From NCBI GenBank assembly GCA_050084515.1, contig CM114271.1, positions 32,612,001 through 32,676,000 on the forward strand: DNA of 64,000 bases, read 5' to 3'. The notes under the pieces were generated by a model. The model did no database searches and was not told where the DNA came from. It saw only the letters and a list, made by a program, of their open reading frames with translations. Positions within the stretch are counted from its first letter, which is position 1, and each line of letters begins with the position of its first letter. Origin of the DNA: Blasia pusilla (lineage: Eukaryota). Positions 8,401 to 45,293 of the stretch are shown piece by piece. Made by a program: the position numbers and the translations under genes.

Positions 8401-8448
8401 TGTGACTAGCAATGTATGTTGTGTAGCAATATGTATGCGTACGACAGT

Positions 8449-14020: not shown

Positions 14021-17000
14021 TGCATGACATGGAATTTCAGCTGAGCAGTAGCGGAGTAGCGTCATTTGAGGATGCGACACATCTCAGCTGTTGCTTTGGT
14101 GAGCCCCATGCCTACCGAGACGGAAGAGGCAGTGGCTAGGGGCGAGACCTGAGGAGATCGACACACGATGGATGATCGGGAGAGACACCCTGGGACTTCT
14201 TGGGATGTTTTGCAGGTATGCCAAGAGATGATAGCCACAATATCGAGCATAGTTCCGAGTACTGCACGTGGAGATGAGAGTTTGCAGTTGGCTGTAGGAG
14301 AGCAGTCAAGTTCGATTGTACAAGACGGGGTTGCACCATAGCAGCCACCGACATCCGCGCTAGAGAGTGCTACTGTAGTCACGATGGAGGCTTGGGAGCC
14401 AAATATGGGCCCTAAGTTGACAAGAGGAGAGTGGCGCCGGATACACCAGTTCTTTAGGAGTTATAGGAGTTATTTTGCATTTAGTATGCAGGATTTGGGT
14501 ACGCTGAAGGGTCCATGGATCCGCATTGAGTTGTCGAGTGACACGCCGATCTTCCGAAGACCCTACAGATATAGTAACATAGAGAGGGCTTTGATTCAGA
14601 GTAGGAGCTAAGACTTGGTTGGAGCAGGATTAGTGGAGATGTTGCATGGAGAGTATACATCTGCCACTGTCATGCTCACCAAGAAGGATGTGTACGGCAA
14701 TTGGACGGATAGGTGGATGTGTGGAGATTACCGACCTATCAATCGGCAGAGGAAGTTCGATAGGTATGCCATTCCCACCCCTCAAGAGATCTTTGATGCT
14801 ATTGGGAATGCAAAGGTCTTCAGTTTGTTAGATCTTCAAGCTAGATACCATTAGTTGCCTATCAGATTGGAGGACAGGCAGAAGATGAAATTCCGGGGTA
14901 TCGATCCTCACAGGAAGGATTGCTTATACCAGTGGCGGTTCTTACCATTCGGGTTAAAGAACGCTCCAGTTGAGCTTCATAGGATCGTTGATAGGATCTC
15001 GGCACGTCTGGATTTTGCTAGGTGTTATATTGATGTTATCATAGTCCTTACCGCCATGGTTGAGGAGCATGCGCGACATCTAGAGGAGGTGTTTCGAAGA
15101 TTTCAATTATATGGGCTAAAGCTACATCCAGGCAAGTGCAAGTTCTTCTATGACCAGATTGAGTACTTGGGTCATACGATATATCGAGGTGGCCTTGGTA
15201 TGCAACAGATAAACATAGAGGCTATTCCATGCATTCCACGCCCTACAGATGTGAGTCGAGTTCGTGCATTCATGGGATTGGCGAATTTTTATCGAAGGTA
15301 CGTCAAGGGGTTCAGTTTGATTGATAAGCCGCTAACCTTTCTGACCAAGGTGAATCAGTAGTGGCATTGGGAGGATGAGCAAGAAAGAGCATTTCAGCTG
15401 CTCAAGGACATATTGACGTCCGTGCCCATATTAAGGAGAGCGATCAGGGGATGTCCATTCCAATTGCATACCGATTGGAGCATGTTGGGGCTTGGAGCCA
15501 TGCTCACCCAACATGAGGATGATGGTAGAGAGTTCGTGGTGGCTTACGCTAGTTGCTCAAGCAATGTTGTAAAGGCGGAGCATAGCTTGTGTGAGCGTGA
15601 GTGCTTGGCTGTGGTGTGGGTTGTTGCACATTTGAGGTATTATCTATTCGACAACCTCTTTACCATCATTACTGATAATCAGCCACTTAAGTGGTTGATG
15701 GAGTCCGACAAGCTTATAGGGAAGCTTGCAAGGTAGGCTCTTTTGTTGCAGGAGTATGACTTCCAAGTGGTGCATAGACCGAGCATGCTCAACTAGATGG
15801 TTTGAGCCGTAACCCATGCCTGAGTCAGCGAGATGCGACTAGAGCTTGTTGGTATGGTGAGAATGATGAGGAGTTGGTGCCAGGATAGCACGTGTCAGCC
15901 TAATTGGGCTTGTTGGTTATGGAGAGCCAAATTGACGAGACTTCGATGTCGAGGTCTGATGGAGAGTCCTTAGATCAAGAGGCCAATGAGGAGAAAACAC
16001 GTTGCCGAGACATTCACGATGATAGAGTGGTCTTGAAGTACCTATGTACTGGCAGCGTCGCAAGCACATTGGCTGCTAGAGAGCGGGATCGGATCCTATA
16101 GTGAGCTAGACGATTCCGGTGGGAGGGGACACATGTGTTGCAAGTTTGGGAAGATGATAGAGTGCGTGTAGTGCCTCATCCTTTGCACAAAACATATTTG
16201 GTGCGTCATGCCTACGAGGAGTTGGGTTATTTTGGAGTGAAGCGAACATATAGCTTGTTCCAGATACAATATTGATGGCGAGGTATGCAGAGTGACGTTC
16301 GGGAGTTTGTTGCCAGGTGCACGATGTGTGATCGAGTCTGAGCATTGTTCAATGCTCCAACTCCTTAATTGCATCCACTTCCAATCATGGATTTAGGGTC
16401 TTGGAGATGGAGTTTGGATCACGATGATGGAGCGGTCTTGAGTTTTTTCAGAGACTGATGCCCATGGCGTTTAATAACTTGGCAATTGTGCAACATTAGG
16501 ATACATTGAGGTATGCGACTATTGGGGGAGGTGGTTATCAACCTACTATCCAAAGGTTTCATCAGGGAGACTATGTTTACTTGTAGTAGACGGACACATA
16601 TGACGTTGGATATGACTGTAGGGCGCACCATCTTGAGAGTGCGTAAGATTTTGCAATATGATGTTCTCTTATTGGAGGGACGTGATGGTATGGTTTGGAA
16701 GGACCATGTGCGTAATTGTGCGCCATATCATCTTTCGAACATTGATGGTGCACTTGATCTGAGCTTAGTAGTAGTCCCTACAAGCTTGCAATGTATGTTG
16801 TATGGTTCTGCTCATGGTGCAGCCACTATGCTAGTCAATGATGGATGTTCGAGAGGATGGCATATGGCATGTCTGACGCCACCTCTCACAAGGGTTCCTC
16901 ATAGACGATGGATGTGTCCCAGATGTACATGGAGTAGGTAGTTCCACATTTCGACTTGTGTTTGTGACATGGATGACAAGAAGGCGACTAACGGTGGGGC

Positions 17001-17242
17001 CACATGAGCACCCTGCCTTCTTGCTCTTAGTGCCTGAGAGATGTATCTCATGGTAGGTAGGGATAGATGGCTATGTGGAGTTCGAGGGACCTAACCATCA
17101 TCTAGGGAGGCGATTGGAGATATTTTGGTACTTCTTGTCTCGTTTTTTTGATGCCATGAGTTAGCATGGGATGGTGCGTGTTTGCGTGTGTGTTCAGTGA
17201 GAGTGATGTATGTTGTGTAGCGATGTGTATACGCACGACAAC

Positions 17243-17869
17243 TATCATGTCTTTTAGGAAAGATCGGTGAGATCTAGTGAAGGGCTTTCTTGAGTAGTGG
17301 AGGACAGGCTCAATAAGTCGAGGATGACCCGTTGAGGCTTCGGGAAATCTGAGAGAGCAGGTTTTCCCTTCGTTGCGGCTCATTTGGAGCCATATAGATA
17401 AACTTACTATTTTGGGTAAGCTTCCATGTTATGTATAGTTGGATTTCTACTTTGGGAAGTGACCCTTGACCCGCTACATCAAGTCAAGAGTCAAGGAGGT
17501 GACCTGCAAACACAGGTTACCAAGGAGAGAGCTTGGGAGAGGGAAGGGGGTATACCTTCAAGAGGGAGAGCTTGAGAGCTCATTCTCTCTTTATTGAACC
17601 TCTTGGCACGAGGCGGCGGAGCTATAGTCCCTTGTCTTGTGAGTGTAATCCAAGCCTCTTATTTGGAGAGTGGATTTGGTTTGACATTAAGAGAGATATG
17701 TGAGAGTGCAAACATTTGAGAGCTATTGGATCGCATTTTAATTTGAGATATTTTGGTACTTTCTTGTCTCGTTGTTTGGATGCCATGAGTTAGCATGGGA
17801 TTGTGCGTGTTTGTGTGTATGTTTGTCAATACCGATGTATGTTGTGTAGCGATACGTATATGCACGACA
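17243..17869 (+). repeat. 3' LTR of element C (family 1)
   Basis: tatcatg (mutated TG start)...gcacgaca; homologous to 2330-2945 and to the reverse complement of 39046-39643. Confidence 0.85.
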
Positions 17870-17983
17870 TCGACCACCATAGACAATACCTCTCATTATA
17901 GTTTTAGCCCTCTGAACTTCTACTTGGATTTGAATCAAATGGTTATTAGAAATTATTAAACAAGCATAACAAATTAGATACGG

Positions 17984-17988
<5 letters not shown>

Positions 17989-18031
<43 letters not shown>
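17989..18031. repeat. (CT)n microsatellite
   Basis: Pure dinucleotide run. Confidence 0.97.
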
Positions 18032-18036
<5 letters not shown>

Positions 18037-18042
18037 CTACCA

Positions 18043-18300
18043 TGGAGGACAAAATTTTACAATAAGAAGATGAGTGGAGACTAGTCCCCTTCTCAATTAT
18101 ATAAGATATGGACAAACAACCCTAATCCTAATCCTAAACATAATCTTGAGTTATACTAATTATGGTTAACTAACCCTAGTTAAGATAATCATGGTTAACT
18201 TACTTATCATGATTAAGTTTTCATACTTCGTGTGAGTACCAAAATATTGCAATTCGTGTGTATGATGATCATGAGCTTGAATATAACTTATTCTTCAATA
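18043..18300 (-). repeat. Copia H 3' LTR
   Basis: Adjacent to the PPT; alignable with 32377-32622. Confidence 0.7.
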
Positions 18301-19377
18301 CTCCCCCTCAAGCTTATGTCAATATCTCTATTATCTAAATCATTTTAAAAATATCTCTAACTTATTTCCACACAATACCTTGGTAATTAAAATGTCAACA
18401 ATTTGTTGATCTGTACCTATATACATAAGAGAAATTTCTCATGCAAGCGTTTTCTCTTAGATAAAGTTGTAATGAACCTCAACGTGCTTTCTTCGAGCAT
18501 GAAACATAGGGTTATTAGCAAGGTTGATACTACTAATATTGTCTGCATATATTACACTAAGTACCAAGTTACTAACACCAATCTCAACAAGTAATCGATG
18601 GAGCCACACCACCTCATATGTTACCTTGGTTACTCCTAAGTACTCTGCCTCTGTAGAAGATAAAGCAACCTCGAAACCAACTATAGGTTGCTTCTTTAAA
18701 GCCCAAATTTATAACTACGCTTCCCAAGATGAAGGAATCACTAGATGTAGAGTGTCTCTCATACATATTTTCTACCCAAACAACATTTGTGAATCCTCCT
18801 TATTGTAAACTTGGAGAAGGTTCAAATTGAAGCCCAAACTAAACAGAGAATTTCACATGCCGCAAAATCCTCCTTATAATATAAAGATGAGGTTTTTTAC
18901 ATGTTTGCTTGAATTGGCTCACTAGGCCAAATGCGTAGCTCATGTTCAGCCTCGTTATACTCAGATAGATCAAACTTTCAACCATATACATATATATATT
19001 ATAGAATCTGAAAGCAACTCTCCTTTATATATTCTTAGGTTCACACTCTGGTCCAAATGTGAGGTTTCCGAGATGCTTGTATGAATTGGCACTCTAGGCC
19101 AACTATGTAGCTCAAGTTTGGCCTAGTTATAGTCAGATAGATCAAACTTCCAACCATACACGGTACATATTACAATATGAAAGCAACTCTCCTTCATCAA
19201 CTCTTACGTTCACACTCTGATCCAAAAGTGTAAAGATTGGCTTGCAAGTTGTCATACAATATTTTGAAAGCCTGTGAAGACCATATTTTCGGTGTAATAA
19301 CCACAAGCTCTGTCCAATCCTAATAAACTCAAGACCAAGGAAGTGTTTCAGTTCTTGTAAGTCCTTCATATCAAATT

Positions 19378-19808
19378 TGTCATGACCATACGGATTATGT
19401 CGTAGAGTATAGTGTGCTAGTAGAGGCCATACCTTATGTAGGGCCGCAGTGTCTAGGTAGAGATGCGATTTCATACATAGGGTTGGGGGTTACTCAGTTG
19501 AGGGAGCTTTCAGAGGGCCGCTCTCGAGGTTGGAGGATATAAGGTGGAGTGCACTCAAAGAAACGATCGATTCTTTGAGTTGAGCCTGTTGCGTTGGGAG
19601 TTAGCCTTGGTAGTGAGTAGAGCTCTTGGCTATGGTGTTTCCCGCAAGCTTTGACCTACATTCTCCCATCGTGGAGTGGGTTTGGCTCGATTGTATGTGA
19701 TTCTACACGTGTTTTATGACAGTAGGTCTTTCACGAATTTCAGTTCTTGTACACTTGTGTTTGTGGATGCTCTCGTCTATGTTATGTATGTATGTGAGTA
19801 TGGTATGT
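19378..19808 (+). repeat. 5' LTR of element D (lacks the last ~40 bp present in the 3' LTR)
   Basis: Starts tgtcatgacc; matches 28450 onward up to ...agtatggtatgt, then diverges. Confidence 0.88.
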
Positions 19809-21004
19809 TGCTGAGGTTCCTCTTGCTACTTATATTATGATCTCATGTGAAGCTATTTGCTCGAGTGTGTGGAGCGTTGCGGATTTTTGCGTGCATGAAA
19901 CTAGGCGGAAGCGCTGTCGGATTTGCGATTCTGGAGGTGTATGGACAACAAGTTTGTCTGATTTTTACTCAGAGTACAGATCTTGGTGGTAGCTGATTTT
20001 TTGTGGAGAGATAGCTATGGTGGTCAATTGAATTTTGGTCGAAATAGATTTGATTTTGGTCACGGATTTGTGAAGTAATTGCTGATCGAAATTTCGCAGA
20101 CTAACTCAAGGTCTGGCTATGGTGGACAGCGGATCGGAGGGGCTCGTTGGTTGGTGACTCACATTGTTGGAGATGCCTATCCTGTTTGGGGCGCCCTGGT
20201 TGGGCCTCTCTCCATGGCGAAGCTTGGCATGTCTCGGTGTTTTGAGGCTTCGAGGCAACTCGTGGTAGCTCGGGGCGAGTGGGCGTGAGGGGCGGAGTAA
20301 GGAGCAAGGAGCAAGGAGCAAGCAAGCAAGCTTGCTTGGGCGCAAGGAAATTTTTGTAGGATTTGTGATTTGAGTGTTGCATAACTGGTCACCCATCTTT
20401 GGGCTATTCTGCCTTGAAGACGCTTAACTGCTAAGTTCTTAACTATGCCAGTGTACACACTGTTGTAGCTCATTTGGTGCTCTTCAGAGATGTGTTAGGC
20501 GCTTTATGCATCTCAGGTTTTTGGTTGATGTACCTCTAGCGCATAGTACGGTGTAGCCTCTCCATGCAGGTGATATTTTCAGGTGTTGCGAGTTCGACTA
20601 GCACGTCATCGACCCGCGGCGGAGTAGCTATTGCGTTAGAATTGTGTGGTGGTTTTGTGGATTCAGGGGGCGCCACGTTTGTGGATTGTGTTACCTTGAT
20701 TTCCATTTGCAATTGGAGGGTTGTCGTTGGACTTCCTGTGTTTGGATCCCCTCCATCGTTGCTTCTTGCTTGCGCGCCCATTGTTAGGGTTGACGCTGAT
20801 TTCCAGAGTAGTGTCACTCCTGTGTGCTACCGATAGTGAGGCTGGAGTGATGACCAGTAGACCGTAGGTGGCTTCTTGTGGTGATGACAGGTTAGGTTGC
20901 CTACACCCATAGCTAGTAGAGCTAGAATAGTATAGTGACATCGACGTCACTTGGTTACTTAGTGGTGATAATTTGGTGGTGGTGCGGCATCGGCGTTGGT
21001 CATC

Positions 21005-22545
21005 ATGGAGTTGTCGGAAAGTCTGGTTGGGGACCGTGGTGCGGACAGTGGTGGTTTCACACGGAGTGGATTAAGGTATCGGCTACCTTTTCCACTTCCG
21101 ACGGTTGATGAAGAGGAGGACGAGGGTGTTACAAACACCGAGTCTTCTACGTTGTTATCGAGTGTTGCAGCTCCATTGATTTGGGACATAGACGAGATAT
21201 ATGGGGCCATGAAGGGCCCACGATGATACTCGGGTGCAGTGGGCACCATTGAGTTGGAGGACTTCATGCATGAGTTTGATACGTGGTGTGATATGCAGAT
21301 GTTACGGAACGCCACGTTGTTTACATCCTTCTTGGCTTGGAAGGGATTGTTTCAGCACTTGGAGGAACCACCCATGGATGCTTACCATGAGTTTAGGAAG
21401 GACCATGTTGCTGAGATTGAGGCATGGAGACAATATTGGTCTCCAAGCTATGTGTCTATCACCCATGGTGGTATTGGTAGTAGTGCTCCTACTATGCCAG
21501 CCAGCCCGACGTTGAGTGGTACGAGTACGAGCCGGAGTGGGAGTACCAGTGGAGGTACCCATGGAGGTACCAGTGGGGGTACTAGTGGAGGTACTAGTGC
21601 CCCACCATCGTTTAGCCGGGTTGCAGAGTTCTTCAAGAGGTTGAAGAAGAACTATCAGGGAGTGTAGACAGAGAAGTTGAGAAGTCTTCAAGAATTTGAG
21701 TGAAAAACTGGTGAGAGTCTTTGTGAGACATACACTCGTATGCGACGCTTGATTTCAGTTACCCAAGGTGTGACTGAGGCTCAGGAAATCCAGTTTTGGT
21801 ATGGGATCTTGGACAGAGAGTTGCGCCGCAGGGTACGTGATGCTACTCTTATGAGTGATGATTCACCCACATTGACCCATGTGTTTGCTCTTTCTGAGAA
21901 GATTGAGCTTAACATGGTAAAGGAGAGAGTGGGGACATCCGCATTCAATAGGGATACAACTACTACTTCTCGTGTTCAGCAGCCCACCTCACAGTCTCGT
22001 AGTAGTGTTGGTGGTAGTAGTAGTGGGAGTCGTGGGGGGTACACGCGACCTCAGTCAGGTCGTAGAGGGACACTTGCGCAGAGACCATTTCCTTCATTTC
22101 TGCTTGCAAAGAAGGACGATCATGTTGGACATGTGGAGGTGATCATGTTAGGAAGTTTTGTCCCCAAGAGGATGGAAGACGGACTTTGGAGGATGGACCT
22201 CAGTTGGCCCCAACTCAGTGTGATCATTGCGGGAGACCAGGTCATCCTCGAGAGCATTGCTTTGATCTTCATCCAGAGTTGAGATCAGGCCGCGACCGTG
22301 GTGGAGTAGCTCCGAGAGGCCGAGGTGGTAGAGGTGGTAGGGGTGGTAGAGGTGGACCAGTGGTTGGAGAGCCTATGGTGGCTACCCCTACCACTACGAA
22401 TGAGCCAGCTATGGTTGCCAAGATTGAGCAGTTGGAGCAGAAGTTGGCTACTATGGTGGTATCCAAAGATAGATCGGGTTCGGGAGCACGGGCTTCCACC
22501 TCTTATGGAGGGATGATCTCTCTTATATGGCGAAAGATAGGTTGA
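21005..22545 (+). pseudogene. Gag of element D
   Basis: GTIELEDFMHEFDTWCD, YTRMRRLISVTQGV, CCHC knuckle CDHCGRPGHPREHC, RGG repeats; homologous to the gag of C and E. Confidence 0.82.
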
Positions 22546-23133
22546 GGCATTGGGCTGCGATTCGAGAGGAGCCACGAGGCGTCGAGCCACGTGGTGCTCT
22601 TGTGGAGTTGGACCCATAGAGGGTCGAGGCGGGAGGCGAGCTAGGCTTCCCAGATCATTCTTGTTGTCTAAGGTGCTTAGGACTCCATCCATGGTTCCCG
22701 CGAGCCTATTGAGCCCGAGTGGGGATCGAGGCATCTACATTGCATGTAGTAGACACGGATGCAAAGACATCGGCGATATTGTGGATGGCAACTTCGGTGT
22801 TGGGATCCCCATTGTTTTCGGCCACGGAGCGATGGCTTTAGTCGTTGACTTAGCTCTGTGATTTCAGCTAGCGACCACGTTGTGTGAACGTGGGGGTATT
22901 ATTGCTACACGTCTTTGAGGTGGATGAGGGTGTTGCAAAGTGGGAGCGACCCTCTATGTCATGTGTAGCATTGAGTACCGGTGCTACTTGGCGGCGGCAA
23001 AGGCGGGAAGATGGATGCATTACGGCCGGCCGACCATTGATCGTGAGAGGCTTACACCTGGTGTATGTATGTTGGACAACCGGGTGGGATATTCGATTGG
23101 TGAGTCCTACAGACAGGTGTATAGACCAGATAG

Positions 23134-23430
23134 AGTCTTGTTAGACTCGGTGCCCAACCTTGATGTTGGGAAAGGCGGCATGTATTGGTTTGGGTATTCG
23201 GAGGTCAGAGTTTGAGCCTTCCCCATTCCAGATTCAAACATCACTTGGAGGAGCCAATGATAGGTCTCAATTCATGACAAGGGAGAAGTTTTCTGTACAG
23301 TTGAGACCAGATCATGCGACTGATAGCTCCCGGTTGGGAGTACCTGCAGTGGTCACATCAGCCGAGTCGTCTGATGTACTAGTTGGAGGAGCAATATTGT
23401 ACCCGATGGGTTTTCAGATGGATTACTAGA
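23134..23430 (+). pseudogene. Aspartic protease of element D
   Basis: VLLDS(G) active-site motif with a frameshift, flap-like IQTSLGG, and DVLVGGAIL. Confidence 0.75.
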
Positions 23431-23868
23431 CTGAGACAGCGTCTTATAGACCTGGTTGGCAGTCCGGGGATGGACGTATGAGCCAAGTTCCTGTGAGATT
23501 TATTTATGGGGCTCAACAAGGAGGGTCTTCCCCAACAGTGTTAGCATCTGTGGCTGGTTTTAGTGGAGTAGTCACTTGGCCATAAGACTTTTTGGAGGGT
23601 AATGTTTTTGCTATGGATTCTCCTGTGCATGAGCAGATAGAGGAGGTCCCTATTTTTGCAGTAGTGGCATCCTCATCGTTGGATGTGCCACTTTGGAGTT
23701 CAGGCGGTGCACTACGGCAGGAGGCTGATCGCCTAGTGCAGGAGGCTTGGTGTGAGGCTCTTATACCTCACGAGGAAGAGGAGGCCCCACGGCGGACTCT
23801 TACTTCTAGTCGATTAGGTTATCCCCTTTGGATACTACACCCATTGTATGCAAAAGATATCTGCGGAG

Positions 23869-24800
23869 GGCATTTGTGTGTTAGATCTCTTTGGTGGGAT
23901 TAGCACGAGTTTGGTCTGCAGATGTTGCAGCCGGTATTCTGTCTTGGAGATACGTGTATGTGGAGCGAGATGAGACGGCCCAGAGAGTCTCATCCCGACA
24001 TATTGGTCAGTTGATGCGGAGATATCCTGAGTTCTTGCCGCCATCAGCTATTCGTGGGTACCAGCGTGCTTTGCGGTCACGCATTGCATTGTTGGGGCGC
24101 AGGACCTTGAGAGGGTTGGTCCTGTGGATTGGGTGATTGCTGGATGGTCATGTCGGGATCATACACGTGCTCGTCGTGGTGAGGGATTACACGACCCTAG
24201 GTCTCGATTGTTTTGGGAGATGTTACGGGTGTTACGACATCTTCAGGTTCATCAGGCACGTGCTCTAGCTTACATTCTGGAGAATGTTCCATTGTTGGGT
24301 GACACTCGGACCCGGATGATGGCGAGTGTTCATGAGGTGCGCTCTTGGATTGGACCAGCGGTGTTGTTGGATGTAGCGCGAGTTGGCTCACGTGCACATC
24401 GTCCACGCTTGTGGTGGACAAACTTGTTGCCTATGGAGGTTCTACGTCGAGCATATGATGTAGTGCAGCGGGATCCTTGCCTTACAGTGGATAGTATCTT
24501 GGATACTGGGCGACTTTCTCAGGTGGTGAGGGTTATTGATCGGTCACCCATGGCAATGGTGAACCGTGTGGGCCAGCCTAGGATGGCACTACCCACATTT
24601 GTGAGTTTTCCCTCGTCACATGCATACAGGGAAGGTGGTCCCGGGCTTGTATGGGATTCTCATGCGCGACAGTTGGTGGAGCCTAAAGCTAATGAGAGAG
24701 AGCGTGCGATGGGATTTGCTACTGGTGTGACAGCGGTTGCTTCCATTTCTGAGGCTTCACGATGTTATGTGTTGGGTCTGGCCATGGACCTGAATTTTTT
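23869..24800 (+). pseudogene. DNMT3-like C5-cytosine methyltransferase domain in element D polyprotein
   Basis: ICVLDLFGGIST, YVYVERDE, VIAGWSCRDH, YILENVP, LLDVARVGSRAHRPRLWWTNLLP, ERERAMGF, VLGLAMDLN. Most of it lies in ORF 24124-25065, same frame as the RT ORF 25072-26220, separated by one TAG. Confidence 0.92.
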
Positions 24801-25071
24801 GACTTGGATTTTGAGTGTTGGTATGGCCAAGCAGCGTCGACTTCGAACTATGTCTGTGGGTCGTCCAGCCCTTGTAATGAGCTCGATGGCTACCGGGACG
24901 GTAGAGGCATCGCCTGGGGGCGATGAGAGTAGTATTTTGCATCCTTGGAGTAAATGGGATGTAATGGCTGGGCATGTGGAGCTGGTTGCTTATGCTGGTG
25001 GAGGAGTTATTTGCTCAGATGATGGTGTAGGTAAGGGTGTACCATCTTGTGAGGGGGTTGCGTAGCAGCCA

Positions 25072-26600
25072 ATGGCATCGTCCTCTCCCTCTAGTGTGCC
25101 AGTGGAGGAGACTTGGGAGCCATTACTTGGACCCAAGGGAGGTGAGAAACGACGCTTGACACAGTTTCTACGTGCTTATAGGAGTTGTTTAGCCTTTAGC
25201 ATGAAGGACTTGGGTTCTTTGGTTGGACCCGGTATACGGATTGATTTGGCTAGTGATACGCCAATCTTCCGTCGTCCCTACCAATATAGTGATATGGAGA
25301 GGGACCTGATTCAGAGTAGGACGTTGGACCTTTTGGAGGCTGGATTAGTGGAGTTGTCGCATGGAGAGTATGCATCAGCCACTGTCATGCCTGCTAAAAA
25401 GGACGTGCATGGCAACTACACAGATAGACGGATGTGTGGAGATTATCGTCCTATCAATCGGCAAACCAAGGCCGATAGGTATGCCACGCCTACACCTGAG
25501 GAGATCTTTGATGTGGTGGGACAGGCAAAGATTTTCAGTACTTTGGATCTTCGGGCAAGATACCATCAATTGCCAATTCGGGAGAGTGACAAGGCCAAGA
25601 CAGCATTTTGGGGTATCAACTCTCATGGCAAGGATTGTTTGTACGAGTGGAAATTATTACCCTTTGGGTTGAAGAATGCACCTGCCGAGTTTCAGAGAGT
25701 GATGGACAGGATCCTAGCAGGGTTGGATTTTGTTCGGTGTTACATTCATGATATCTTGGTGTGCAGTTACACGGTGGAGGAGCATCAGATACATTTGCAG
25801 ATGGTGTTTGAGCGGTTGAAAGTTCATGGTCTACGTTTGCATCCAGGAAAGGGTAAGTTCTTCCATGAGGATGTTGAGTACTTGGGTCATGTGATCTATC
25901 CAGGTGGTTTGGGAGATCAACAAGCAAAGGTGGAGGCTACTGCACTTATTCTGCGTCCGGTAGATGTGAGTAGAGTTCGGGCATTCATGGGATTGGCGAA
26001 CTACTATCGGAGGTATGTGAAGGGACTTAGTGCTATGGCAAAGCCTTTGAACCAATTGCTGAAATCAGATCAAGAGTGGCACTGGGGAGATGATCAGGAG
26101 AGAGCTTTTGTGGAGCTTAAGGCCCAGTTGGTGCCGGCGCCTATCTTGAGGAGACCTATCATAGGGTGCCCATTTCAGTTACACACCGATTGGAGTAGTT
26201 GGGATTTGGAGCGGTGTTGACACAACATGATGATGAGCACATGGAGTTTGTGGTGGCCTATGCAAGTCGTTCGAATAATGCAGCGGAGTCGCGCTATAAT
26301 TCATATGAGGGAGAGTGCTTGGCAGTAGTGTGGGCTGTGGCACACTTTAGGTGTTACTTTTTTGGCACACACTTTACCCTTGTTACTGATCATCAGCCAC
26401 TCAAGTGGTTGATAGAGTCTGACAAGCTTACAGGGAAGCTTGCACGGTGGGCTCTTATCTTACAAGAGTATGACTTCCTGGTGGTACATAGACCTGGAGT
26501 TGCCAACCTTGATGTTGATGGGTTGAGTAGGAACCCATGTACTAGCCAAGAGGATACAACTGGGGCTAGATGGCATGGCGAGGTTGATGAAGAGATGGTG
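25072..26600 (+). pseudogene. Reverse transcriptase and RNase H of element D
   Basis: RMCGDYRPIN, FSTLDLRARYHQ, LPFGLKNAPAEFQR, YIHD (YIDD mutated), FMGLANYYRR, LHTDWS, SYEGECLA, TDHQPL. Confidence 0.93.
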
Positions 26601-26849
26601 CCAAGTTGGCATGCATCCGCCTTTTTATGTTGGTTAGGGGTGGACTCTAGTATGGAGGACTACATGATATCTTACTCTAGTCAAAGGGTAGATGGCCAGC
26701 CTTCAATCCTAAGGTTGGAGATGGTGGTACGGATCAGCGTGATATTCATGATGATGCGTTGGTGTTGGAGTTCCTACGGACCAGTAGGGTGCCAAGCATA
26801 GTGAGTGCCAAGGAGCGAGACCGTGTTCTTCAAGGTGCTAAGAGGTATC

Positions 26850-28171
26850 GATTGGAGGGAACACATATTCTCCGTGTGTGGGAGGATGGTAGAGTACGAG
26901 TAGTGCCGCATTTGGCTTAGAGAGAGCGCATTGTGCGACATGCCCATGAGGAGTTGGGATATTTTGGGGTAAAGCGTACGTATAGCTTACTCCTTGGTGA
27001 GTATTGGTGGCGTGGCATGCATAGTCAGGTGCAGTAGTTGGTGTCACGGTGTATGGTTTGTGACCGGGTGAGGGCATGATTCAATGCCCCTACACCACAG
27101 TTACACCCCTTGCCTATTATGGGGTTGGGTTACCGTTGGAGTGTGGACTTTGCGGGACCGTTACCGTTGACTGTACGACATCATCGATATGTGTTGGTGA
27201 TGGTGGAGCACTTCTCCAAGTGGATTGAGTTGGTGGCATTACCTAACAAGGCAAGTGAGGGAACGGCGTATGCGTTTCTTGATAGAGTGCTTAGTCATTT
27301 TGGTGCACCAACCGGAAGTCTTCGACCGACCGGTCTGAGTTTGTGGTGAGTTTCAGGTCTTGTGTGACAAGGCGTTGATTGATCATCGGACCACGTCTCG
27401 AGATCATCCAGAGGCTGACGGTTTGGCTAAGCGTGTGGTTCAGACGGTGAAGAGGGCATTGCGCAAGTATGGCCTACAGAAGGGGCATCTTGGAGACAGG
27501 GATATTCATTTGCCATGGGGTATAGGTTCAATTGCCAAGCATCCTTGGCTTCCTTCTCACCTTATTTTTTGTTATACGACTGAGATCCAAACTTGCCAGC
27601 AACAATTCGTCGGGAGTCTAGTGAGGTGGTGAACCTTAATGACCCAGAGATGTGGATGAGAGTGTGTTATCAGTGGGCAGAGCTCTTTCGGAGAGTTATG
27701 CCAACAGCCTTTGAGAATCTTGCCATTGCTCAACACAGGGATACGTTGCGGTATGCAACCATTCGGGGTGGAGGTTATCGACCATCAATTTGTAGGTTCC
27801 ATGTGGGGGACTATGTCTATTTGCAGCAGATTGCACCGACAACGTTGGATGTGACGGCAGGCCGCACTATTTTACGAGTGTGCGAGGTGTTAGCTTTTGG
27901 AGTTCTCATGTTGGAGGGTCGTGATGGATTTGTTTGGAAGGACCATGTGCGTAATTGTGCACCATGTTATCTTCCAAATGTGGATGGTACTGTTGACCCA
28001 AGCTTAGCCATGATACGTGCTAGCTTGAGGTGCATGTTGTGTGGGTCTGCTGGTAACGCAACCCCTATGTTGATGTGTGATCGGTGTTCTAGGGGTTAGC
28101 ATATGATGTGTTTGACTCCACGTATGGATGTTGTTCCTACTGGAAGGTGGGTTTGTCCTCGATGTACTTAG
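26850..28171 (+). pseudogene. Integrase with C-terminal PHD finger (28031-28165) of element D
   Basis: HHCC (HAHEELG...CMVCD), WSVDFAGP, HPEADGLA, GDYVYL; CMLC...CDRC..H..C...WVCPRC. Confidence 0.9.
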
Positions 28172-28449
28172 GAGGGGTAGATGACTAGATCTTTGCATGA
28201 TATGGATTACAGATGTGCGACTAACGATGGGGCAACCTAGCACCCGGCCTTCTGATTTGTGCACCCAAGAAGGTGTATAGCATGTAGTAGATGTATAGGG
28301 CTACCTAGGAGTTAGAGGACCTAAACTTGATTAGGGGGCGAGTTGTGGTACACTTGTGTTTGTGGATGCTCTCGTCTATGTTATGTATGTATGTGAGTAT
28401 GGTATGTCAGCGATGTATGTTGTATGATGATGTGGATTCGCACGACAAC

Positions 28450-28922
28450 TATCATGACCATACGGATTATGTCGTAGAGTATAGTGTGCTAGTAGAGGCC
28501 ATACCTTATGTAGGGCCGCAGTGTCTAGGTAGAGATGCGATTTCATACATAGGGTTGGGGGTTACTCAGTTGAGGGGAGCTTTCCAGTAGGGCCCACTCT
28601 CAGGTTGGAGGATATAAGGTGGAGTGCACTCAAAGAACAGTCAATTCTTTGAGTTGAGCCTGTTGCGTTGGGAGTTAGCCTTGGTAGTGAGTAGAGCTCT
28701 TGGCTATGGTGTTTCCCGCAAGCTTTGACCTACATTCTCCCATCGTGGAGTGGGTTTGGCTCGATTGTATGTGATTCTACACATGTTTTATGACAATAGG
28801 TCTTTCACGGATTTCAGTTATGGTACACTTGTGTTTGTGGATGCTTTCGTCTATGTTATGTATGTATGTGAGTATGGTATGTCAGCGATGTATGTTGTAT
28901 GACGATGTGGATTCGCACGAAA
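28450..28922 (+). repeat. 3' LTR of element D
   Basis: Direct repeat of 19378-19808, plus the terminal segment ending gcacgaaa, followed by the TSD. Confidence 0.9.
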
Positions 28923-29327
28923 AATTCAACTTGTAACTTTAACTTGACTTGTTGTGCCATATCCTCAATACTCCCAATAATCAAGACGTCATCAATATAG
29001 AACGCAATAATAACCATATCACCTTGTCCTCTCAAGACATACAGCAAGGAATCAGAATCACAAACCCTAAATTCAAGCTCTTGTAGGATATGTTTAATCT
29101 TGCCATACCAAGCTCTTGGGGCTTGCTCGAGCCCATATAGAGCTTTCTATAACTTATATAGGAAAAATCAAAACTCTAGATGGTCATATCCAAGTAGTTA
29201 AGCCATTTATATCTCCTCATGGAGATCTCCATTCAAGAAGACATCCTTGACGTCCATGTGATGTAGTCTCCACTTCTTACTCATTGTAGTTTCAACCACT
29301 TTTATTATAATCGACATCTTTATAACA

Positions 29328-31600
29328 TGTTGGATTCTCAACATCCACTTTTGCCAACATCTTTAATCTGATCGATCCTCTTATATGAGGAGAAGCCTAG
29401 AGTGATGGTTCTGACATAGACGTCGAATGAGTCATAGTAATATGACGTAGGTGGTTTATGGAATAGCGTTACTAGGATTATCTAAACCTATATTGCATCT
29501 TGAGTAGTGATATAGTCGCAAGCCATGGCGGTAGCGCATGCTCGTATGTCGAGTTATGTCCATGTTTAGGTTCCATCAAAGCTCTTGTGTGAGGGCACGG
29601 ATGGACTAGGCCACTTTGTACCTTCAAGATTTGTAACAGATTTCACTGATTTTTGTCATATCCTGTTTTCTCATATAGTAGTAGAGCTATAGGTTTTCCA
29701 GTAATTTGTATCTAGCGATCTAGTATGTTTGCACAAATTCTTGAGAGACGACTTCTTCTTCGTCAATTCGTGCTCGCCCTCCTCACTGGGAGAAGGGAAG
29801 TTAGATGGGTCTAACTATACATTGTGGAAGTTCAAAATAAGAGATGTCCTCGAATCAATTGAGATCTGGGACATGACCACAATGATCGATTCGAATCCAC
29901 AAGCTTCTTTGAGTTCCGCTGTCCATCTTTATCTGGTGGTACCCATCATGTTGTATTGTTGGCATGGAAACACATAAGCGGCGATGATCTATATCCAATT
30001 GTCGCGAATGTGACAGATTCAGTTATGACTCTCATTCAACATACGACCATTGTTGCTGAAGCGTGGAACATTATGAAGAACCACTATGAAACCATGAATA
30101 AGACTCGGATTCAGAATGTGGAGAATTAGCTTACGTCCGAGAAATTTTTAGAAGGAGAAAGCACGGATCAATTTTGTACGAGGATCAAGAATCTTCAAAA
30201 TCACATGACATACGTAGGAATTTTCAAAGTCTAGCAAAGATTTGGCACATCGGTGCATAAGGACTTTTCCTCCGAGATATGATAGTTTGGTTATTGTTGA
30301 ATACTCAAGTAAGACACACACCGCTTACTTTTAAACAATTTCCTCTTCTTGCAATGTTGGTAGAAGAGGAAATGCGCTTCAAAGCAAGAGAGAGAAGTGA
30401 TGCAACATGTACTCTAGTACAAAGAGGTAGAAATCATGATTACAATTCAAATGCCAAAAAGAAATTTTCAAAATAAATCCTTCAAATTCTTTTATTGTGG
30501 TAAGCAAGATCATCTTATCAAAGATTATAGAAAGAGCAGCCATGATGAGAAGAATGGTTATTTTTAAGACCTAGGAAGGAGTCTTACAATTTTGTAGAAC
30601 TAGGAGAACATGAGATAGATGCTTGGGTAGCAATCGAAGAGTTTTGCACATAGGCAGAACATTCTACCAAGTCAAAGAGTGAAGATGCATGGATGCTCGA
30701 CAGTGGAGCTTCTAAGCACATCACCAATCATAAGGATTGGTCTAGCTCCTTATAGCCTCTATAGGAGCCCATCGTTGTTATAGTTGAAAATAATGCAAAG
30801 TGCCTTGTAGAAGGGAAAGGCATAATTTCTCAAGTCTCACAAAAAGGATATAAAAAGAAGTTAATTGGTGTCCTCAACATACAAGAGTAGAAGCGCAATT
30901 TGCTTTTAGTAGCAGTATTATTATATGATTGTAACTTAGAAGTTCATTTCGATAAATTTGGAGTAGTCATTGAGGATGCTAATGGGAAAGTAGTGGATGA
31001 AAGTATACGGAGAGGGAACATCTATGAGTTGTATGCTTTCACGACAAGTGTAGATACAAATTTTGGTAGCAGTAAGTTATGCTATGAAAGATTTGGTCAC
31101 ATAAGTTTTCCCTTCTTGAGTTAGATGCAGAAATCTGGCATATATGGTTGCTAATTAACCAATAATTTCTGGAGTGTTGAATACATATGAAGCTTTAATA
31201 TGGGCAAGAAATATCGAAGACCATTTCCACAAGAGTCCAACAATAGAGCAAAGGCTCCTCTAGAGCTGATATATGCTGACCTATGTGGTAAAATATGAAC
31301 AGTGGCATTAAGTGATTCTTCCTACTTTTTTTTAGTTGCCAACAATTGTAGTGGGAAGATGTGGATGTATTTCCTTCGTGATAAGGCAAGTGCTTTTGGA
31401 AAATTTAAAGTATGGCACAAGCTGGTAGAGAATGAGACAGGAAAGAAGGTAAAAAAAGCTTCACACCGATCGAGGAGGATAATTCTTATCAATAGAATTT
31501 CTACAAATATTTGGGGGAGCATTGAATCATACAATGATTAACTTCGGCGCATACACCACAATAAAATAGAGTTGTTAAGCGTTGAAACCGTAAGGTGATT
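29328..31600 (+). mobile_element. 3'-truncated Ty1/copia element G (same family as F)
   Basis: LTR 29328-29675 (tgttggattctc...ttttctcata), degenerate PBS tagtagtagagc, gag KLDGSNYTLWKFKI, protease WMLDSGASKH (~30690), integrase start; ends near 31600. Confidence 0.85.
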
Positions 31601-35600: not shown

Positions 35601-37243
35601 TGTGCTATTTTACCATGCTCTATTTATGTTCCACATAAAAAATCACTCTTGCTTGTATTTCAATATATATTTGCTAAATGATTAAGCTATGCTCGGTGCA
35701 ATATTGCAATAGTGGGAGTTTCCATAACTCTTAATGCAATCTCCCACTATTGAACTGTTTTCTTACCTTTTCATATTTACTATATCCAACCCTACATAAA
35801 GTAGGCTTTGCCATACGCATTAGATACTCTCTTAGGCTATGTTACCACCATTACACAAATAGGAAGAATGGAATTCATTGCTTTTAGGGTTGTTGTCACC
35901 TGACATTTGCTTCACCTTGATTGTATTTCACATATCCATGTGTGACACCCGTCCTATATCTTTTCAAATAAATTACAACAACATTATCCTAATTGATTAC
36001 CTGTATTTTTCCACGAGTAATCAAGCTGAATAGGCGAAATACTTGTGAGGATCAACTAGTGTAGATAGACTATTCTAAAATTATAATTTAAAGATCAACA
36101 ACCATCTAAGCATTGAAAACTTAGTTGAACCTTAAAACAAATGAGAAAAATAAACACATATGATTTTTGAAAATAAAGCCAAAAGGAAAAAGTGTTGGAA
36201 ACCCTAGTTTGTTTGAAATCTTCAATGAAATCAATTCCTACTATTTTCACACTTTCTTAAATTTTTCCAACACACTTTCATAAGAAAAAAAATTCTTTGG
36301 ATCCTTTCGCTTGAGCAATTTTGTCTCTTTAGCCTCTCAAGTTGGTCATCCTTTTATGTAGATCTCTTTTTTACCCACTTTTGGACCACCCCAAAAATAT
36401 TTTAAAATTTCTTTATATTCATAGGATCTCATGATACCAAAGTGCATTGCACACACATTTTTACTAGTTTGCTTGAATCAATGAAAAGAGGAAGGAAGAA
36501 AACAAGAAGGAAAAGAATTTGTTCATTCTTTAAGAAGAAAAGTTAAAAGAGAAATAAATGGTGGATACTATCATACAACAACTTATTCAAGTATCTAATT
36601 TTGAACTTAACAAAATCTCGGTAGTTAGTGCATTTGACATTTAAATTCATATTTAAAAATAAGAGAATTAATTGAAAATTGAAAATAGAGATTATAAAAA
36701 AAAATTTTTTATATAATATATACTATTGAAAAGGTCAAAATTTTAAACTCGTCATATCCTTGTTTAAAAAATAAAAAAGACTTACTTATATAGAATATTT
36801 CTCAAATATGAAACGATGCTTTTATTTTTATATATAAAGAAATTATGAGTGAATCATATTTAGCAATTTTAATATTTTCTTCTCTATTTTCAAGTATGTA
36901 TTTTAATCTCAGGTAAATATGTTTTTTTTTATATTACAAGAGAGAAGAAGAAAACACATTGTAATATTTCATAAATGGTGTTATAGAGAGCCATGGTTTT
37001 GACAATCTTTAGGTTAATATCTGGTTGAGTATTATTCCACAATGATAACCATTTTGCATTTATCCTAACATGCCATTTAAGTTGTCTTATCAATCTTCCC
37101 TCATGATACCTCTTATTTGTATAATCCATTTTGAAATGAAGAAGTTGTGTGTATGTGTCCAACCATGCTCTTGGATTTTGTTGATAAGAGATTATGGAAT
37201 ACACAAGTATTTGTGAGATGCTAATTTTTATATATTTACCTAG

Positions 37244-37246
<3 letters not shown>

Positions 37247-37310
<64 letters not shown>
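37247..37310. repeat. (TC)n microsatellite
   Basis: Pure dinucleotide run. Confidence 0.97.
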
Positions 37311-37313
<3 letters not shown>

Positions 37314-37532
37314 AAAGTAGATGGTGTGGTGAAGAGTTTCTTGGTTGACGCTTGGAAGCTCCGCACAAACACATTGTTTGGTCAACACTCACACTATATG
37401 AGAGTGGCTCCCTCCTCTCATATGATACCTTATTCACTTGCTTCTCTTTCTACACCCATCCCCGTCTCAAGCACCGTCCAATCAGGGCACGGCGTCTATG
37501 GTCGCAAGGCTACGACATGCACTACTTAATGA

Positions 37533-37633
<101 letters not shown>

Positions 37634-38459
37634 GAAAATTGATCATGAAATTTTAAGGGTTTAGGGTTTTGAGACCATTTTGATAGAAATCCAATGGTCA
37701 TTAATGTAGTGTTGTGAATAAATATTTTTACAAAATTTTGAAAATTTTAAGTTATTGATTGATTGATTGATTGATTTACCTAAATTATATAAGTGATTTT
37801 GTTTCTAAATTTATACTCGAAGTTGAGACGATTTCTTTATATAAATTTTAATCAGAAAATTACAATAAGAATCATGAAGTCTTACAATCGATACAAGGAG
37901 TGGTAAATCTAATATTCTTAGGTACTATTAATTGGTTTTGTTTCAAACTCTACGATGAATCAATACATGCAAATTCATGGTTGCTTTAATGTGTCATTGT
38001 AGTTTTCTCATCTTTTATTAGGGATATTTGACTTACAATTTAAGCCTTGCAACATATTGCATTCCTTATCTCAAATTTAATTAATGACTAGCTCATAGAT
38101 TTAAATAAATGGAATAAACCTATATAATCCTTCTATTCTTCTTAATTTATCTTTTTTCAAACAAAGGGTGGAAAACGTGAAGAAGTTTGTGTAAAAGTAA
38201 CATAGTATCAATGGCCGACTTAAACTTGTGAGGAAAAATTTCCTTTTTGTAATACATGGAAAAATGGATTCTAAATGGAAAGATGGTATTAAAGGATGCT
38301 AGTAGCTTTGGTAGAGAAGAAAAAGACTCCAAAGTATGAGGTTAGATGATTTCTTTCCAAACGTATTAACATGATGTTATTGGGAATAAAATACTAGTAA
38401 AATAGATTATGGAGATTCATGATGGAATTTTTGATGGGAAGTGTGAGAATATGTCCACA

Positions 38460-40560
38460 TGGTCTGGTCCAGCATTGCGTACCATGACTGGATGGCCTGA
38501 GCCTCCAACACCCCTTGAGTGACGTTGATCAATCGGCGCAAGCGAGTGTAAGCCTCACGCAAACTCTCACCCAGGCGCCTCTGGAAGTTGTGGATGCTCC
38601 ACAACTTTTCCGTCTGTACCCCCTGGTAGCTCGCCCTTAACTCAACGAAGAACTCAACCACTGGGTTCAACCTGAGTCGAACCCAACTAGATGATGCAAC
38701 AGCTCCATTGCGAGTGACCCCTCCTAAAATATCACTAGTGGAAGAGGAAGTAGCCTCTCTTGACTCCTCCTCCTCATCTGGGAACGGCTCCCTCCATGAC
38801 ACATAGTGTGGGTCCTAGTAGAGTCGCCATGCCTCAATCTCCTAGGCATATGTGTGGGAGAACTCATGGTAATCGTCCATGGGCGCCCCTCTAAATGCAG
38901 GAACATACTGTTCCATGCTGTAAATGAGTTGAACTCTCTAGAGTTCCTAGCCCATTGTGAGTCACACCAACTCCTAAACTCCACAATGAAGTCGTGTAGC
39001 TCTATAGTGCCTACAGCACCCAAAAATCTACACGGTCCTCTTCCCTGTCGTGCGCATACACATCGCTACACAACATACATCGCTGTCACCGAACACACAC
39101 ATAAACACGCATGATCCCATGCTAACTCATGGCATCCAAACAACGAGACAAGAAGTACCAAAATATCTCCAATAAAGTAAGCTCCAATCTCTCTCTACAC
39201 CATCTCACACCATAGCTCTCAAAGGTGTGCACTCTCTCTCATGTCAAACCAAACCCACTCTCCTAATGAGAGGCTCGGGTTACACTCACAAGGCAAGGGA
39301 CCATAGCTCCGCCGCCTCATGCCAAGAGGTTCAACAAAGAGAGAATGAGCTCTCAAGCTCTCTCTCCTTGAGGTATACCCCTCCCCTCTCCCAAGCTCTC
39401 TCCATGGTAACCTATTCTCCCAAGTCACCTCCTTGGCTCTTGACCTGATGTAGGAGGTCAAGGGCCACTTACCAAAAATAGTAAGTCGATCATATACTCA
39501 AAATGGTACTTACCGAAAATAGTAAGTTCCTCAATATGGCTCCAAGGGCCTCAGCAAGTCACCCTCGACCTAATGGGTGTGTCCTCCACTACTCATGAAG
39601 GCGATCTATTAGATCTCATCGATCTATCCTAAAAGACATGACATCCCCGTCGTCCATCTCATACGCCTGCCAAGTAGGACCACTCAATGTGTACGGTGGA
39701 TCACTAACACACTCCTCTATACGCTCCCCCTTGTCTGAAGACAACACAAAAGGAGATTGAGGTGGTCTCTCACGTGGAGACCCTCGAAATCTTGCCCCAC
39801 TCCGAGTAAACCCTCTAGAGCTACTCTTAGGTCCACTACCTCGCCTCTCAAAATCCCAAAAGGACCTCGTGATGGCCCTTGTGCCCCTCTCACACGATCA
39901 CTCTTAATCTCATGAGTAATCCCTCAATCACTCAAACTAAACATGCGGCACTCAATCTACACTCACTCATTGAGACGTGTGTTGTGCGGCAACAAGCAGC
40001 GTGGTGCGGCAAATCAACCAATCTATCGTCTCATCGATAAACCATCATCAACTTTGGACATCCCACACAGGTCTATGTCCCCTAAACCCATACATCATCG
40101 ATGCTCCTAGCATCAACACGAAATCCAATATCCCAAATAACTTCCCAATATTGGGAAATCCCTCACACGTGCAGGGTAAGAGACCAGAATGGGTAACATG
40201 ATAATAATGTTGATATCGCTCCTCGGCAACTGCAAATCTCGACCCTAATTCAGTCGTGAAGACAATTCCTTCAATCAGCAAGTCATACTCCTCTCGTACA
40301 GACGTTGCTCAAACCTCCTCGATGTGCGGTGCAGGTCCTGCGGTCCGGTCCGGCACAAGTGGCACGAAACCGCTACAAACGACATGGCACTCGGCGGCAT
40401 ACCCTCCTCAATCAGAAATTCACACGCTCTACTCCTTAGTGAAGCAGCGGCTCCACGATGGAGATGGTGCGGTGCGGCCACAAGGCGTATAGGGAGAAAA
40501 TCGGCGGCGTGTTGCAACTACCAACGTCACGGCATGGTACTCGATCGTCGTCGAGAGGCT
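38460..40560 (-). mobile_element. Ty3/gypsy fragment E (leader and gag, homologous to element C), interrupted by a solo LTR
   Basis: GTIELHDFIVEFRSWCDSQ and LREAYTRLRRLINVTQGV; the leader matches ~9520-10190 in reverse complement. Boundaries approximate. Confidence 0.85.
39046..39643 (-). mobile_element. Solo LTR, family 1
   Basis: Reverse complement of the A/C LTR (tgtcatg...gcacgaca); 4-bp TSD tccc at 39042-39045 and 39644-39647; removing it restores gag sequence like 10395-10440. Confidence 0.92.
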
Positions 40561-45281: not shown

Positions 45282-45293
45282 GCTCTGATACCA
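45282..45293 (-). other. Primer-binding site (tRNA-iMet type) of copia F
   Basis: + strand gctctgatacca reads TGGTATCAGAGC on the minus strand, directly next to the LTR. Confidence 0.9.

Follow-up and report, generated by a model that had tools for sequence, protein, structure and literature searches.

How does a retrotransposon that encodes an integrase come to carry a copy of its own 3' terminal segment between its polypurine tract (PPT) and its terminal repeat? This question is raised by four related elements, A, B, C and D, which lie in the same orientation in a 64,000-nucleotide stretch of DNA assembled as Blasia pusilla (GenBank assembly GCA_050084515.1, contig CM114271.1, forward-strand positions 32,612,001 to 32,676,000; hereafter the window). 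All four end in the order PPT, B1, two nucleotides, A2 and B2, where segments A and B are the upstream and downstream parts of the terminal repeat and NN denotes the two-nucleotide spacer; within an element, B1 and B2 are 83–97% identical. The sequence evidence separates the repeat that reverse transcription would build, from the PPT to the primer-binding site (PBS), from the ends that integrase would use, two units that normally coincide.

The preliminary description of the window had placed a copy of the 3' segment between PPT and repeat in each of the four elements, and self-BLAST bears this out. On the plus strand of element A, the PPT (2190-2200) is followed by B1 (2200-2327), the spacer AC (2328-2329), A2 (2330-2818) and B2 (2818-2945), with 2200-2328 and 2818-2946 aligning at 82.9% over 129 nt. 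Element B has its PPT at 8299-8309, B1 at 8309-8446, the spacer GT at 8447-8448, A2 at 8449-8928 and B2 at 8929-9066, the two B copies being 90.6% identical over 138 nt; in element C the same parts lie at 17103-17113, 17113-17240, 17241-17242 (AC), 17243-17740 and 17741-17869 (86.9% over 130 nt). The PPT of element D (28332-28342, TAGGGGGCGAG) is directly followed by B1 (28341-28447), an internal copy of the element's own 3' terminal segment that ends in CGACA. After the spacer AC (28448-28449) comes A2 (28450-28817), which begins with TATCA, derived from TGTCA, and holds a TATA-like box and hairpin at about 28610-28660, and then B2 (28816-28922), which ends in CGAAA, derived from CGACA; 28341-28445 and 28816-28920 are 97.1% identical over 105 nt. 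A separate repeat search of the window returned the same pairs. Thus B1 intervenes between the PPT and the repeat in all four elements, and the junctions read as had been claimed, ...cgaca + 2 nt + t[g/a]tca: ...GCACGACA AC TGTCACG in element A, ...TACGACA GT TGTCACA in element B, and ...GCACGACA AC TATCATG in each of C and D. Across the window and its related loci the spacers are AC, GT, GC and TC. A conserved G-rich tract lies directly 5' of each B1 in the window (TAGGGTGGCGA, TAGGGGGGCGG, TAGGGAGGCGA, TAGGGGGCGAG), and the last ~60 nt of B are conserved between families.

The nature of the duplication becomes apparent at the 5' ends. Element D (19378-28922, plus strand) is the only one in the window with a 5' repeat (19378-19808), composed of A1 (19378-19743, with a TATA-like box and hairpin at about 19536-19585) and the first 65-67 nt of B (19742-19808). 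It matches 28450-28882 at 96.3% and stops 39 nt short of the end of B, so that the two supposed long terminal repeats (LTRs) are unequal. The comparison was extended to 80 related loci on metagenome contigs, which were fetched with an alignment of reverse transcriptase (RT) relatives as query. Self-BLAST of these loci was performed without the low-complexity filter, which hid GT-rich B pairs in L002, L022 and L030; a regex scan for the junction motif at two mismatches was too noisy and was not used. One rule holds in the full-length relatives: they begin with A and no B, and they terminate in B1-NN-A2-B2. The order A1...B1-A2-B2 is present in seven independent full-length copies (element D, L002, L007, L027, L043, L044 and L064), where L008 is the same insertion as L002 and was not counted, L010 the same as L007 (shared flanks), L028 the same as L027, and L061 and L063 the same as L064; L004 and L005 were left out, having only part of A at the contig start. 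For the 3' ends, 36/80 loci extend 3.9 kb or more past the start of RT, the other 44 being too short there, and L045, L046, L047, L049 and L065 were left out as not resolved. B1-NN-A2(-B2) occurs at 20 independent 3' ends (16 loci and the four window elements), and the copies with the split layout share 43% to 83% RT identity with element D. Ten further independent copies, L011 (the same as L006), L012, L016, L023, L026, L031, L051, L062, L068 and L075, end in PPT-B followed by flank, without A2-B2 (the A-internal-B form); L013 and L052 are rearranged, and the assembly of L029 runs from A2 into the PBS.

At the independent 5' ends in the window and the 80 loci, BLAST with B in the query found flank, and never B, in front of A (18/18). 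Because the 5' repeat lacks B and A is preceded by flank throughout, the layout is a true split direct repeat, A1–internal–B1–A2–B2. The likeness to PAT/Ngaro split repeats that had been pointed out for the window holds, and the split layout is seen in seven full-length copies. The reading of A-B as a normal LTR with an extra copy of its tail, on the other hand, does not survive: the 18 5' repeats have no upstream B and A1 is followed by a PBS rather than by B, element D being the one partial exception.

The ends used for integration can be located by the target-site duplications (TSDs). These measure 4 bp, a correction of the length first read, and lie directly before TGTCA at the start of A and directly after CGACA or CGAAA at the end of B. 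They are exact in nine of the 11 insertions examined: AATT on both sides of element D (19374-19377 and 28923-28926), GGGA around a minus-strand solo A-B repeat that belongs to the A/C family (39046-39643, with TGTCA start and CGACA end), AAGG in L002, CATA in both L007 and L043, AATA in L044, TACA in both L011 and L031, and CCAA in L068; L016 and L064 match at three of four positions. An uninterrupted paralogue of the solo repeat's target site is found at about 10385-10430 (near 10405). With the TSDs of the solo repeat and element D sitting directly at the start of A, the proposal that integration starts from TGTCA holds. The TGTCA and CGACA ends form an imperfect 7-bp inverted repeat and, because the TSDs adjoin precisely these ends, the internal B1-NN-A2 represents the two integrase-type ends abutted across two nucleotides, those at 28448-28449 in element D. 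As judged from sequence, the integrated form is TSD - A1 - PBS - internal - PPT - B1 - NN - A2 - B2 - TSD.

The priming sites mark different boundaries. In every case B1 begins immediately 3' of the G-rich tract (...AGCTAGGGGGGCGA|GTTGTGG...). The sequence after A1 is complementary to part of A itself; wherever a TATA-like box could be recognized, the complementary site lies 26-31 nt beyond it. This complementarity was tested in 13 elements with 1000 shuffles as control. Exact runs amount to 16 nt in L002, L008 and L029 and 13 nt in L011 (0/1000 shuffles each), 11 nt in L033 (3/1000) and L064 (1/1000), and 9-10 nt in L007, L016 and L017; runs of 11-16 nt at the right places occur in four families, relative to transcription start sites that are predicted only. 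A TGG-type tRNA PBS was not found after A1, and the sequence there bears the signature of a Tf1-like self-priming PBS, as a prediction. Neither the A/C nor the B family has a 5' end in the window, and when the window was scanned for sequences that could pair with their PBS, only trivial matches to the inverted solo LTR came up. An extended B RNA was also considered as plus-strand primer and was ruled out, given that the start of B2 coincides with the PPT end at B1.

Since the PPT adjoins B1 and the putative self-priming PBS adjoins A1, reverse transcription should build an LTR that consists of B-NN-A, which we term LTR*. PPT and PBS bracket this unit and not the TSD-defined one, and the integrase-type ends would lie inside LTR*, at the B|A boundary. 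Two suggestions of the preliminary description can be placed here. Integrase processing at an internal junction fits this arrangement; non-canonical priming is not needed as regards position, the priming sites being canonical relative to B-NN-A, and stands as regards the primer, predicted to be a self-primer and not a tRNA.

The account towards which we lean, with moderate confidence, is that Tf1-like reverse transcription builds a cDNA flanked by LTR* and that integrase opens an end-joined form of it at the internal B|A junction. Reverse transcription with ordinary strand transfers, as in Tf1, would yield a linear cDNA with LTR* on both sides of the internal region (LTR*-internal-LTR*). Its termini, where A ends and B starts, would then be joined, as happens in a 2-LTR circle or through a template jump from end to end, and integrase would nick both strands at one of the abutted-ends junctions (CA|NN|TG), giving 3'-CA-OH ends with 2-nt 5' overhangs to be inserted with a 4-bp stagger. 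Such ends are the normal strand-transfer substrate of integrase. A circle opened at the junction of the former 5' LTR* would give exactly A-PBS-internal-PPT-B-NN-A-B. In each cycle the B1 of the RNA would serve to rebuild the two B copies, and for the two A copies A2 would supply the upstream part and A1 the R/U5 part. The integrated copy is circularly permuted relative to the predicted cDNA, and we infer that it arises when an end-joined intermediate, akin to a 2-LTR circle, is opened at one of its abutted-ends junctions.

Several observations support this account. The A2|B2 joint equals the right end of the predicted cDNA followed by its left end, with 0 bases added or lost (...TTTTCA|GTTGTGG at the joint, to be compared with ...TTTTCA|CTCAAAG and ...GGGCGA|GTTGTGG), and it is exact in every inspected copy of the L002-like family and in element D. 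The comparison of B1-B2 with 5'-3' repeat divergence that the preliminary description had proposed was carried out, and the B1-B2 identities track those of A1-A2 copy by copy (97/96, 94/92, 93/91, 95/86, 86/84, 86/78 and 92/90%). Within one family the B1 and B2 sequences form a star without a B1- or B2-specific lineage, which argues that both B copies are renewed at each transposition and agrees with the earlier view that the inserted segment co-evolves with its own element's 3' end. L052 (3246-3885) reads PPT-B1-GC-A2-PBS, followed by an inverted A(1-163) ending in ...GGTCATGACA|flank, and looks like an integrated snap-back of plus-strand strong-stop DNA, B-NN-A-PBS, cut at the internal A-start site. 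The second rearranged locus, L013 (4920-5830), contains an inverted piece of A and internal sequence, with a joint made up of the end of A, 10 nt of PBS, TTGCTAG and B; this may be the scar of a circle junction, and an internal deletion explains it equally well. Cleavage of the palindromic LTR-LTR junction has been reported for the integrases of spumavirus and HIV-1, as outlined in the portions of these reports used here (PMC1180852, PMC1905944).

The coding capacity is that of an integrase element. Pfam matches in the window elements and in L029 follow the Ty3/gypsy order of Pol, extended to protease–DNA methyltransferase (DNMT)–RT–RNaseH–integrase–PHD. In L029, the most intact relative, two frames of 1369 and 1047 aa jointly cover protease, DNMT, RT, RNaseH, H2C2, rve and PHD (Asp_protease_2, DNA_methylase, RVT_1, RT_RNaseH, Integrase_H2C2, rve and PHD), and the tyrosine recombinase profile (Phage_integrase, PF00589) has 0 matches in 19/19 of its open reading frames (ORFs) of at least 80 aa. 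The DNMT-like domain (PF00145) lies between protease and RT in element B (4529-4978, E 2.5e-9) and element C (13175-13459, E 9e-4); it scores E 1.8e-13 in L029:976-5082, and E 1.4e-4 in element D with 21.9 bits against a cut-off of 22. All these matches span only profile positions 2-120 of 324. A PHD finger (PF00628) is located at the integrase C-terminus (1672-2091 and 16510-16938 in the window; L029:5086-8226), the spot that a chromodomain holds in chromoviruses. The named RT relatives come from Calypogeia fissa (mostly 73-81%, with one further match of 46%), Marchantia (60-78%), Closterium (43-48%) and a Klebsormidium nitens protein (46%). Given the liverwort-named relatives, DNMT-bearing Gypsy elements would reach beyond Klebsormidium.

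Raw reads of three RNA runs labelled with the same species, and of one DNA run, were mapped to positions 17000-29000. Sense-strand RNA reads reach a depth of 10-175x over the elements and derive mostly from related copies that are 90-99% alike. The DNA depth corresponds to thousands of dispersed copies. Over element C the RNA depth falls from 24-37x (17401-17801) to under 1x (17802-18202), which agrees with an RNA end near the A2|B2 boundary, though it is no proof of it. In addition, RNA reads (16, 31 and 46 in the three runs) skip 995 nt at 26703-27699, where the zinc finger and core of the integrase are encoded, and have nine other letters in their place; the family thus has an expressed variant with the integrase deleted, as opposed to a GT..AG intron.

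A number of observations weigh against the preferred account. We infer the circle or end-joining step, and the data contain no such intermediate. A symmetric 2-LTR* circle has two identical junctions, and a random choice between these would be expected to produce mirror-image copies (A-B-NN-A-internal-B) too, yet they occur at 0/18 5' ends; the model thus needs an added polarity, or a fast collapse of the mirror form by A x A recombination. The A-internal-B copies, of which L011, L031 and L068 have exact TSDs and L016 one that agrees at three of four positions, fit B1 x B2 recombination and a once-cut single-LTR* integration alike and do not discriminate. PBS complementarity is weak or absent in 4/13 elements, three of them old: L027, L031 and L044 have matches of only 6-7 nt, which at least 345/1000 shuffles equal, and the 10-nt match of L043 is at the wrong place in A. 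Element D itself deviates, in that its 5' repeat holds 67 nt of B and its leader offers no complement of at least 9 nt as a PBS; among the 80 loci nothing resembles this leader (19809-21000) except two chance-level matches of 24 and 31 nt. Minimum-free-energy and centroid folds do pair the first 17-21 bases of the predicted RNA with the PBS (z -4.8 and -2.7), but the RNA 5' end was picked by complementarity, so that the folds are partly circular and supportive only. Finally, binned as they are, the RNA reads allow neither the transcription start nor the poly(A) site to be placed.

How else might such a layout arise? In one proposal the LTR is an ordinary A-B, a further internal B acts as a long primer for the plus strand or as a second priming signal, and the 5' B was lost through secondary damage. 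This is how the four 3' ends of the window look when read alone, and the conservation of the last ~60 nt of B between families would suit it. We nevertheless find it scarcely credible: it is contradicted by the 18/18 5' ends without upstream B and by the PBS directly after A1, and the start of B2 is the exact PPT end at B1, an indication that plus-strand DNA begins with the first base of B. A pararetrovirus-like cycle, with a single-LTR* DNA circle as the working genome and terminally redundant RNA of more than one turn, would make the integrated A...B-A-B copies greater-than-unit-length by-products. The same RNA, with its terminal redundancy, would come from the circle and from the integrated copy, and the ten independent A-internal-B copies are what a once-cut circle of this kind gives. 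Yet the A|B joint is absent from a single-LTR* circle, integration is indicated as the usual route by a conserved integrase, by exact TSDs and by dispersed copies that number in the thousands, and the L029 ORFs hold no movement or coat genes beyond gag; such a cycle is very unlikely.

Two further explanations deserve mention. In a restoration of the DIRS/PAT kind, the RNA would lack the outer parts of the element, B1-NN-A2 would serve as template or bridge to complete and circularize a single-stranded cDNA, and a DDE integrase would insert the circle. The repeat layout is identical to that of PAT/Ngaro as depicted in the sources (PMC8969392, PMC4157794), B1-NN-A2 is the exact image of the joined termini, and the internal complementary region of DIRS-1 is essential according to the portion of the DIRS-1 report used here (PMC7192593). 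However, the PPT at B1 and the self-priming PBS at A1 would suffice to account for where A and B begin and end, through ordinary retroviral strand transfers, L052 resembles a by-product of plus-strand strong-stop DNA (B-NN-A-PBS), the L029 ORFs contain no recombinase, and TSDs are present here that DIRS elements do not have; we consider this restoration unlikely. Alternatively, the cDNA might never be end-joined: integrase would cut the linear molecule at the internal junction of its left LTR* and insert both half-sites, after which host end-joining would seal the free termini, A end to B start, within a chromosome break; or an end-to-end template jump of RT would make the A|B joint. The product and its precise joint would be the same, and L052 has an internal site used as an end; against this, the chromosome break must be held together during repair, and the absence of mirror-image copies (0/18) poses the same problem of polarity. 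This route appears quite unlikely to us. Opening of an end-joined, LTR*-flanked cDNA at its internal junction remains the account that we prefer.

The remaining features of the window concern the elements and their surroundings. Element A (1-2945) has its 5' part truncated by the window start and retains RNaseH (3-245) and rve (866-1156) in front of its PHD match. Element B (2946-9066) has no 5' repeat in the window and begins in gag right at the end of element A; beyond its DNMT-like match it carries RT (5391-5840), RNaseH (5982-6464), H2C2 (6468-6896) and rve (7026-7585). Element C (9067-17869), likewise without a 5' repeat in the window, includes a gag zinc-knuckle region at about 10925-11650, RT (14855-15358) and RNaseH (15362-15733). 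The internal region of element D (19809-28331), which has broken frames and a leader without recognizable PBS, contains the DNMT-like domain (24031-25065), RT (25066-26220), RNaseH (26199-26801) and rve (27080-27346). All these features lie on the plus strand, and frames are broken in every copy of the window. The insertions are nested, with the same orientation throughout and each in the 5' third of its host copy: the end of element A (2945/2946) adjoins element B in mid-gag, and that of element B (9066/9067) adjoins the leader of element C. The placements of A in B and of B in C rest on weak protein matches (E 0.06 and 0.013). The host of the solo A-B repeat is a C-like leader within an internal region on the minus strand (38452-40575), in the same orientation as the repeat. 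Over positions 1-28000 the sense strand of the elements is strongly enriched in G relative to C (GC skew 0.12-0.25) and in T relative to A, a bias that the remainder of the window does not share. Another repeat family, unrelated to elements A-D, forms inverted copies that are 83-87% alike (29328-31589 with 43463-45729, and 41067-41243 with 45554-45729), and long (CT)n and (TA)n microsatellites lie at 17990-18030 and 37240-37640.

Textbooks pair split direct repeats with tyrosine-recombinase elements and equal LTRs with integrase elements. The elements described here have the short TSDs and TG...CA ends of LTR elements (4 bp; TGTCA...CGACA), but not the arrangement of two equal LTRs in which a PBS lies next to the 5' copy and a PPT next to the 3' copy. 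LTR finders that expect two equal LTRs will misplace their boundaries or miss them, and annotation will misclassify A-internal-B and solo A-B copies. With PAT, Ngaro and DIRS elements they share the split repeats, seen here in the seven full-length copies and at the 20 3' ends, and a B1-A2 that is the image of the joined termini; some of those elements also carry a methyltransferase, as summarized in the sections of the sources on which we draw (PMC8969392, PMC4157794, PMC7192593). Those elements encode a tyrosine recombinase and lack both integrase and TSDs; the elements here have a DDE integrase (rve and H2C2), 4-bp TSDs and TG...CA ends, with no recombinase found. With Tf1/sushi elements and plant Tcn1, whose clade is predicted to self-prime in mosses and club-mosses in the part of the Tcn1 report used here (PMC6317226), they have in common the lack of a tRNA-type PBS and a sequence after the 5' repeat that is complementary to the transcript start, here a predicted one; those elements differ by their equal LTRs and chromodomain, in place of which split repeats and a PHD finger at the integrase C-terminus are found here, a comparison made by features and not by tree.

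The internal junction has its own counterparts. At the retroviral 2-LTR circle junction the abutted U5/U3 ends likewise form a palindrome that integrase nicks on both strands (PMC1180852, PMC1905944, PMC4372172), but there, in the portions of these sources used, a 4-nt spacer separates the ends, and the circle serves for the most part as a dead end or a reserve. Here, every copy permanently carries in its interior a site of abutted ends with a 2-nt spacer, which appears to be the regular substrate.

In bacterial transposition of the IS3/IS30 type, a DDE enzyme acts on abutted inverted ends, 2-3 bp apart, in a circular or tandem intermediate, although these are DNA elements without reverse transcription, unlike the elements here. 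We tentatively speculate that the abutted-ends junction (CA-NN-TG) on end-joined or circular cDNA is the regular substrate, that the integrase works in an IS3/IS30-like manner and that the 2-LTR circle is an obligate precursor of the provirus, which is possible but less than probable. If this were true, the elements would represent a natural retroelement missing link between integrase-type and DIRS-type retrotransposons. Whether end-joined or circular cDNA is a true integration precursor is an old question, which these elements make directly testable in a plant system.

The closest counterpart is KnitGypsy-Dnmt3 of Klebsormidium nitens, which combines DIRS-structured repeats with Gypsy domains (de Mendoza et al., 2018; Fig. 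4c legend, PMC5890265). Both its characters, a C5-DNA-methyltransferase domain inside a Gypsy-type Pol and a DIRS-like repeat structure, are found in the window elements, and the link to the K. nitens elements made here is the 46% RT match to a K. nitens protein. Our literature search found no description of integrase or Gypsy elements with split direct repeats besides this one. The host here is liverwort-like, and the main text of PMC5890265, in the part on which we draw, gives no TSDs, PPT, PBS or mechanism for its element. Since the layout is in print for KnitGypsy-Dnmt3, the window elements are therefore new members, from a liverwort-like host, of a kind already described; what is new is that the repeat of reverse transcription is told apart from the ends of integration, together with the predicted self-priming PBS, the TSDs and the census. 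Taken together with KnitGypsy-Dnmt3, they indicate that a whole clade breaks the textbook pairing, from streptophyte algae (PMC5890265, as far as its figure legend describes the element) to liverwort-like genomes, with RT identities to element D of 43-83% and with transcription today.

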